NCBI RefSeq assembly: GCF_024223415.1
Contig: NZ_CP100500.1
Strand: one strand, 5' to 3'
DNA length: 64,000 bases
DNA from: Escherichia coli
GTDB taxonomy: Bacteria; Pseudomonadota; Gammaproteobacteria; Enterobacterales; Enterobacteriaceae
Part shown: positions 31,964 to 32,898 of the stretch, in pieces
Numbering within the stretch: the stretch's first letter is position 1
Layout: each line of letters begins with the position of its first letter
Program-made: the position numbers and the translations under genes
Notes under the pieces: model-generated
Seen by the model: only the letters and a program-made list of their open reading frames with translations
What the model was told of the DNA's origin: nothing
Database searches by the model: none

Positions 31964-31991
31964 GGCGGGAAATGCTCCCGCCTTATTTTTT
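31964..31991 (+). terminator. rho-independent terminator after dksA, overlapping the first ATG of the gluQ ORF
   Basis: ggcggga-aatgc-tcccgcc hairpin followed by TTATTTTTT; the loop contains the ATG at 31972. Confidence 0.7.
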
Positions 31992-32898
31992 GTTCAAAGA
32001 GATGACAGACACACAGTATATTGGCCGCTTCGCCCCCTCTCCTTCCGGCGAGCTTCATTTTGGTTCTCTGATTGCTGCGCTTGGCAGCTATTTGCAGGCT
32101 CGCGCCCGACAAGGTCGCTGGCTGGTACGCATAGAAGATATCGACCCGCCTCGTGAAGTTCCCGGTGCCGCAGAAACTATCCTGCGCCAGCTGGAACATT
32201 ACGGCCTGCACTGGGACGGCGATGTTCTCTGGCAATCGCAGCGTCACCACGCCTATCGTGAAGCACTCGCCTGGTTACATGAACAAGGACTAAGTTATTA
32301 CTGCACCTGCACGCGTGCGCGTATTCAAAGCATTGGCGGTATTTACGACGGTCATTGCCGGGAATTGCATCATGGACCAGACAACGCCGCAGTGCGTATC
32401 CGCCAGCAGCATCCGGTCACCCAGTTTACTGACCTGCTGCGAGGCATTATTCACGCCGACGAAAAACTGGCACGGGAAGATTTTATTATTCATCGCCGTG
32501 ATGGTTTGTTTGCCTATAACCTGGCGGTGGTGGTGGATGATCACTTCCAGGGCGTGAGCGAAATTGTCCGCGGGGCAGATTTGATCGAACCGACAGTGCG
32601 GCAAATCTCGCTGTACCAGCTTTTTGGCTGGAAAGTGCCAGATTACATTCATCTGCCGCTGGCGCTTAATCCACAAGGCGCTAAACTTTCCAAGCAGAAT
32701 CATGCGCCTGCGTTGCCGAAAGGCGATCCACGCCCGGTACTAATCGCGGCACTTCAATTTCTGGGGCAGCAGGCAGAAGCACACTGGCAGGATTTCAGCG
32801 TCAAACAAATCCTTCAGTCAGCCGTCAAAAACTGGACGCTGACCGTCGTGCCTGAGTCGGCAATTGTAAATTCAACATTCTCAAATGCGTCATGCTGA
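31972..32898 (+). CDS. gluQ: glutamyl-Q tRNA(Asp) synthetase
   Basis: [36 protein letters not shown]...; class I aaRS HIGH-like motif; alternative start at ATG 32002 (MTDTQ..., 298 aa) lies just 3' of the dksA terminator hairpin and may be the real one. Confidence 0.9.

Follow-up and report, generated by a model that had tools for sequence, protein, structure and literature searches.

Which of two in-frame start codons does a gene use when one of them lies in the loop of a transcription terminator, and how does its message get past that terminator at all? Both questions are raised by the junction between dksA and gluQ (also gluQRS or yadB, encoding tRNA glutamyl-Q(34) synthetase) in Escherichia coli. 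The sequence analyzed here, hereafter the window, is a stretch of 64,000 nucleotides from contig NZ_CP100500.1 (assembly GCF_024223415.1). A first-pass annotation of the window had described a hairpin with a T-run after dksA, an ATG at 31972 in its loop (ATG1) and a second in-frame ATG at 32002 (ATG2), and these coordinates and this description are correct on the sequence. The reading that we favor, and regard as very probable, is that a leaky intrinsic (Rho-independent) terminator ends the dksA unit, that gluQ is expressed by read-through, and that translation starts at ATG2 on a leader without a Shine-Dalgarno (SD) sequence, ATG1 being incidental and occluded.

Genes and annotation at the junction

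The 1.55-kb segment of the window that carries the junction (31400-32950) has a match in 5,424 of 5,426 complete E. coli genomes, with a best identity of 99.9%, and is annotated as dksA plus gluQRS. The features discussed below are collected in Table 1. The upstream gene, dksA, has a strong SD, with an anti-SD duplex of -9.2 kcal/mol. The downstream product is identified as GluQRS, a truncated GluRS catalytic domain, by its match to known structures, by the precomputed Pfam assignment PF00749 on its homologues and by the RefSeq product name. The longest ORF at gluQ, 31972-32898, encodes 308 aa; the full 298 aa that match PDB 1NZJ (E = 3e-202) and 4A91 are residues 11-308 of this long ORF, and both PDB entries are 298-residue chains beginning with MTDTQ, i.e. 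at ATG2.

Table 1. Features of the dksA-gluQ junction, in window coordinates (last line: in the loci named)
Feature	Position	Strand	Description
dksA CDS	31480..31935	+	151 aa + stop TAA 31933-31935; ORF list, RefSeq annotation at 99.9% identity
Terminator hairpin	31963..31983	+	5' arm AGGCGGGA 31963-31970, loop AATGC 31971-31975, 3' arm TCCCGCCT 31976-31983
ATG1	31972-31974	+	In hairpin loop, in frame, opens 308-aa ORF; judged incidental
T-rich tract TATTTTTTGTT	31984..31994	+	Terminator tail; also most of the A/U-rich, SD-less leader of gluQ
ATG2	32002-32004	+	Functional gluQ start, without SD sequence; 30 nt 3' of ATG1, in frame
gluQ (gluQRS/yadB; tRNA glutamyl-Q(34) synthetase) CDS	32002..32898	+	298 aa + stop TGA 32896-32898
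Enterobacter/Lelliottia hairpin	about 1166-1200		Loci L028, L038, L041, L043, L047, L053, L056, L060, L063, L070 and others

The two possible gene models coexist in public resources. RefSeq/PGAP has gluQRS begin at the counterpart of window 32002 (897 nt, 298 aa) in 7/7 E. coli records inspected, K-12 MG1655 included; automatic gene calls in metagenome and assembly collections give 308 aa for two large E. coli clusters (P0001 and P0002). The 308-aa form is a longest-ORF annotation artefact. A gluQ call from 31972 is wrong, although still propagated by automatic callers, and the correct product is the 298-aa protein from 32002.

Past the end of gluQ, RefSeq starts pcnB at an ATT (32958-32960), its known non-canonical AUU start, and the mechanical ORF list begins at TTG 32937. 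A promoter-like sequence, TTCTCA-17-TATGAT (32878-32906), overlaps the gluQ stop TGA; its expected start near 32913 corresponds to K-12 position 159171, exactly that of the 'S-159171' promoter given to the pcnB-folK unit by Conway et al. 2014 (mBio 5:e01442-14, PMC4161252).

Structure and conservation of the terminator hairpin

The stem begins 28 nt past the dksA TAA, shortly after the stop codon and on the coding strand. Its core pairs GGCGGGA (31964-31970) with TCCCGCC (31976-31982) and is extended by one A-T pair (31963/31983); directly 3' of the stem comes the tail TATTTTTTGT, a U-rich tract in which seven of the first eight bases are T. In isolation the hairpin has a stability of -14.5 kcal/mol. 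It is present in both the MFE and the centroid fold, its 75-nt context gives z = -2.64 with 2/200 shuffles as stable, and partition-function folding in three sequence contexts paired the arms with P about 0.99 and revealed no competing fold. A terminator scan returned it as the top site of a 4-kb region (8 pairs, 6 of them GC, with a 5-nt loop); the same region held 6 terminator-like sites against a shuffle expectation of 4.3, which is not above chance, and therefore the scan by itself proves little. Among the chance-level sites is a weak minus-strand one formed by the inverted repeat GGCTG-GCTAATTA-CAGCC (31924-31943), which lies across the dksA stop.

This structure has been studied before. 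Caballero et al. 2012 (BMC Microbiol 12:226, PMC3542578) described the terminator and both AUGs in Shigella flexneri 2457T, at an orthologous locus that has the same sequence judging by the primers, all of which match the window exactly (their +1 is window 31427, +54 the dksA ATG, +509 the last base of the stop codon and +590 window 32016). Their hairpin has an Mfold energy of -14.7 kcal/mol, against -14.5 here, and the AUG in the hairpin, a further AUG 27 nt on, the dependence on the dksA promoters and the SD-less second start are all the same, so that only the host strain differs, being E. coli here. In K-12, RNA-seq delineated a ligT-sfsA-dksA-yadB-pcnB-folK operon with an internal, partly read-through terminator that closes a dksA-specific unit (PMC4161252). 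The dksA operon served that study as a worked example, its terminator being one of 264 intra-operon terminators mapped; the operon is the one considered here, and the start codon is not discussed there. The identification of the hairpin as the dksA intrinsic terminator, made in the first-pass annotation from the letters, is thus correct and already known, documented in S. flexneri and in agreement with the K-12 data.

For a comparative view we scanned one genome per species and obtained 80 Enterobacteriaceae loci, with GluQ identities of 76-96%. Start codons were compared in a set of 80, made up of the window and 79 of the scanned loci, and stems in a stem-anchored alignment of 78 species. The dksA gene lies directly upstream on the same strand in 79/80 loci, the other locus having just 41 nt of upstream sequence, and the gap from the dksA stop to the gluQ start ranges from 51 to 172 nt (median 69). 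Within the stem, the four pairs at the center never change and the two outer G-C pairs occur in 74/78 species; next to the loop, the pair is A-T in 70 species, G-C in 5 and G-T in 3, the one clear compensatory change. The structure is thus maintained, but with most stem pairs constant the covariation support is thin. The arms show a positional entropy of 0-0.3 bits, the T-rich positions just 3' of the stem 0.3-1.0 bits and ATG2 0 bits, compared with 1.7-1.9 bits in the 20 nt upstream of the hairpin. Because its core is conserved across 74-78 of the 78 species against near-random flanks, the hairpin is beyond chance and, on the evidence of this alignment, under selection. Within a single family, it is nothing unusual for a terminator stem to be strongly conserved.

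The elements around the stem are more variable. The tail has T at seven of eight positions in Escherichia, Kluyvera and some Citrobacter, and at only three to four of eight in the Enterobacter/Lelliottia clade, where it reads GTTACTGTTGAT, the hairpin stands just 12 nt before the gluQ ATG and the stem is unchanged. Across species, 10 to 29 nt separate the hairpin from the ATG. Kosakonia and relatives (L039, L050, L054, L072) carry an additional GC-rich hairpin of unrelated sequence, such as GGCGCACCGC-TAAGGT-GTGGTGCGCC; it lies after the dksA stop and before the usual hairpin, 43-48 nt ahead of the gluQ ATG, and in L072 the usual hairpin is degenerate.

To look beyond the family we took ten GluQ homologues of 47-68% identity from a representative library. 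A DksA homologue is encoded immediately upstream of gluQ in nine of these ten loci, and the junctions between the two genes are diverse. Two have canonical terminators with unrelated stems (L094 and L097), that of L094 being GAAGGGAGGGC...GCCCTCCCTT and then TTTTTATT, with a GTG start 5 nt further on. L092 and L095 have stable hairpins that lack a T-tract, L093 has one with only a short TTT tail, and L091 and L096 have GC-rich spacers with no clear terminator. Finally, L089 (983-1000) and L090 (984-1000), at 51-54% identity, have a dksA-gluQ gap of 17-18 nt with neither hairpin nor SD; therefore the terminator is not universal to the dksA-gluQ arrangement. That a hairpin recurs while its sequence does not argues for a structural role, as terminator or 3' end, rather than for a universal sequence-specific site. 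A sequence-specific binding site in the stem was likewise downgraded as a candidate, in view of the distant taxa with unrelated or absent stems.

The start codon of GluQ

Of the two ATGs, the upstream one has superficial attractions: it opens the longest ORF, a G-rich SD-like stretch lies just before it, and folding leaves its AUG unpaired in the loop. One could suppose on these grounds that ATG1 is a genuine start, that GluQ is wholly or partly a 308-aa protein with an N-terminal extension, and that the hairpin gates initiation. We consider this extremely improbable. Edman sequencing was applied to GluQ-RS with a C-terminal tag, produced together with its native upstream region, and returned the sequence following the second Met (PMC3542578); the determination was made under T7 overexpression and on the predominant band only, which would leave room for a minor 308-aa isoform, and the short form alone was detected. 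The authors concluded that the protein has 298 aa, that the start in databases, whose older entries carried 308 aa, was wrong, and that the true start has no obvious SD. Recombinant active enzyme and the crystal structures are of the 298-aa form too. The start codon, which the first-pass annotation had treated as an open question, was therefore already known in 2012 to be the second ATG, and Edman data, RefSeq, PDB 1NZJ/4A91 and conservation all settle it in the same way. A search of the literature after 2012 on Term-seq, read-through or the start codon of gluQ found nothing relevant.

Conservation separates the two codons sharply. An ATG occupies the position aligned with ATG2 in 80/80 loci, whereas an open in-frame ATG inside the hairpin occurs in only 3/80 (the window, Escherichia sp. 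E1V33 and E. albertii), so that the pattern expected of a dual start, with both codons conserved among relatives, is not observed. Every ordinary E. coli genome inspected retains ATG1, which might be counted in its favor, but it is lost or shifted within Escherichia itself: the loop sequence is AAATAC in E. whittamii and, in AF16, a divergent E. coli isolate, AATTAC, and in Escherichia sp. MOD1-EC7003 the T-tract has lost 1 nt, so that its loop ATG is out of frame, while stem and ATG2 are unaltered in all three. E. fergusonii has the hairpin and no Met at the first position (PMC3542578). In many other genera the frame between hairpin and ATG2 is closed by in-frame stops, for example at -6, -12, -15, -36 or -39. 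With 22 open codons upstream of ATG2, the probability that one or more of them is an ATG by chance is about 0.26-0.29. Judged from these comparisons, the loop ATG is not beyond chance and behaves as neutral non-coding sequence.

The 20 nt before ATG2 form an anti-SD duplex of only -1.7 kcal/mol, in line with an 80-species median of +0.6 (range -4.0 to +2.2); the gluQ leader is T-rich, with 42% T and 14% G over all species, and anti-SD pairing at the gluQ start is also weak in nine of the ten distant loci. For ATG1 the duplex reaches -6.3 kcal/mol, but the stretch that would pair, GGCGGGA, doubles as the 5' stem arm (P unpaired 0.009), and only 1 nt separates it from the AUG. Mean unpaired probabilities over the start footprints (0.36-0.39 for ATG1, 0.41-0.52 for ATG2) do not discriminate between the starts. 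Nor does pairing probability clearly favor ATG2, which the calculation places mostly in a paired state (P unpaired about 0.1), within a weak A-U/G-U helix of -3.9 kcal/mol (31983-32005), where, on the read-through RNA, the U-tract UUAUUUUUU pairs with AAAGAGAUG, a segment that includes ATG2. This helix is probably incidental, because the leader sequence differs in other genera and the helix is not conserved outside Escherichia. The only informative contrast in accessibility is then the modeled difference in helix stability, -14.5 kcal/mol at ATG1 against -3.9 kcal/mol at ATG2. ATG1 may thus go without detectable use because it lies between the arms of a -14.5 kcal/mol stem and because the sole SD-like sequence is the 5' arm.

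The geometry of termination bears on the same point. From the general behavior of intrinsic terminators, RNA release would be expected at about 31990-31993. Such an RNA would stop 9-12 nt short of ATG2 and reach only about 6 codons past ATG1. If ribosomes initiated efficiently at ATG1 on terminated dksA mRNAs, non-stop complexes would follow, one more reason to expect ATG1 to be silent. The same geometry removes a premise of the first-pass annotation, namely that GluQ would or would not depend on read-through according to the start used: as the terminated RNA ends before 32002, GluQ needs read-through with either start, barring a promoter inside or downstream of the hairpin.

Read-through and the supply of gluQ mRNA

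Coupling of gluQ to dksA transcription through terminator read-through, which the first-pass annotation had also suggested, is borne out by the S. flexneri experiments and by K-12 RNA-seq. An RT-PCR product spanning dksA and gluQ-rs established co-transcription (PMC3542578). In the same study a promoter-less lacZ fusion, pVCDT (+58 to +590, window about 31484-32016, covering dksA from codon 2 onward and gluQ up to codon 5, with ATG2 as codon 1), had baseline activity; removal of the intergenic region raised lacZ activity 10-fold, and mutation of the 5' stem arm more than 2-fold. The stem mutant, refolded here, has a stability of 0.0 kcal/mol. These experiments were made in S. flexneri with multicopy plasmids, mainly in LB at mid-log phase. 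Part of the intergenic effect may not be termination, since the stem mutation gave >2-fold against 10-fold for the whole deletion. Cited in the paper as analogues are the terminator upstream of dnaG in rpsU-dnaG-rpoD and the recA-recX read-through, which involve unrelated genes and sequences.

Whether gluQ also has a promoter of its own, condition-specific and perhaps at the sigma-E site predicted in RegulonDB, so that its expression would be partly independent of dksA read-through, was considered from both published and sequence data. The S. flexneri authors note the RegulonDB sigma-24 prediction and allow for condition-specific promoters, and a gluQ mutant has an osmotic-stress phenotype. 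They further report that in stationary phase the amplicon across the junction rose 20-fold and the dksA and gluQ amplicons 1.3-fold (PMC3542578); the constancy of the gluQ amplicon beside the change at the junction would be compatible with a second source of gluQ RNA. Against this, no separate promoter was seen under the conditions tested: the promoter-less fusion stayed at baseline, if in few conditions, and the K-12 RNA-seq study names no yadB-specific unit or promoter (PMC4161252). A generic sigma70 scan found nothing upstream of ATG2, the nearby promoter-like match at 31993-32022 being placed to start transcription downstream of ATG2, inside gluQ; promoter-like matches in the region are at chance level (3 against 3.4 expected). 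Relaxed sigma70 and sigmaE scans of 31300-32040 likewise found no motif placed to serve ATG2, and there is next to no conservation between the dksA stop and the hairpin. We therefore hold a gluQ promoter to be very unlikely. A leaderless or independently initiated gluQ mRNA was rejected for want of a suitably placed -10 element and on account of the inactive published fusion. The findings that the first-pass annotation had named as counting against its proposal, an independent promoter downstream of the hairpin or N-terminal data matching 31972, are both absent from the record: the published N-terminal data fit 32002, and fusion and motif scans point to no promoter.

The junction amplicon raises a different issue, for a 20-fold rise flanked by 1.3-fold changes is not explained by simple constitutive read-through. 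Could the hairpin be a regulated attenuator, or an element that interacts with a protein or the ribosome and tunes either read-through or initiation at the SD-less ATG2? The authors of the amplicon data themselves speculate about its change with growth phase (PMC3542578), and the mismatch between 10-fold deletion and >2-fold stem-mutation effects points the same way. So do the invariance of the stem across genera where loop and flanks vary, its retention in Enterobacter/Lelliottia despite a poor T-tail, and the wide occurrence of SD-less starts (9/10 distant taxa). On the other hand, the alternative structure or upstream ligand domain that would mark an attenuator or riboswitch was not found by upstream entropy, Rfam or folding: no antiterminator or aptamer sequence is conserved upstream (1.7-1.9 bits), no competing fold appears, and an Rfam search of 31250-32150 at E <= 1 gave only a chance snoRNA match inside dksA (19 bits against a gathering score of 50). 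The riboswitch search of the S. flexneri authors was also negative (PMC3542578). Together with the distant taxa that have unrelated stems or none, and the 10-29 nt spread of hairpin-ATG distances, these results make regulation by the hairpin unlikely in our view. A more specific form, in which the invariant GGCGGGA/TCCCGCC hairpin has a second, sequence-dependent job, either growth-phase- or stress-dependent read-through or the loading of 30S subunits at an SD-less start 10-29 nt downstream, we judge to be somewhat less likely still. If true, it would explain why the stem is unchanged where the T-tract has decayed and the hairpin lies 12 nt from the ATG.

Leaky termination followed by translation from ATG2 can be pictured as follows. 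Hairpin and T-tract (31963-31994) very probably act as an intrinsic terminator, with most transcripts from the dksA and the upstream thpR-sfsA promoters stopping at the T-tract and a minority of read-through RNA carrying gluQ and the downstream genes. For a gluQ without a promoter of its own, the mRNA level would follow dksA transcription as a fraction of it, either fixed or modulated. On the read-through RNA, GluQ would be translated from ATG2, 18 nt past the stem, and the U-rich, SD-less leader probably keeps this translation low. ATG1 would have arisen incidentally, through the loop sequence of the E. coli/Shigella/E. albertii lineage.

Through this arrangement, how much of a tRNA-Asp wobble-modification enzyme is made depends on transcription of the gene for the stringent-response factor DksA, a link proposed and tested in 2012. 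The present comparison adds to this the conservation, across Enterobacteriaceae, of both the terminator and the SD-less start, and indicates that the ATG in the loop is a recent accident.
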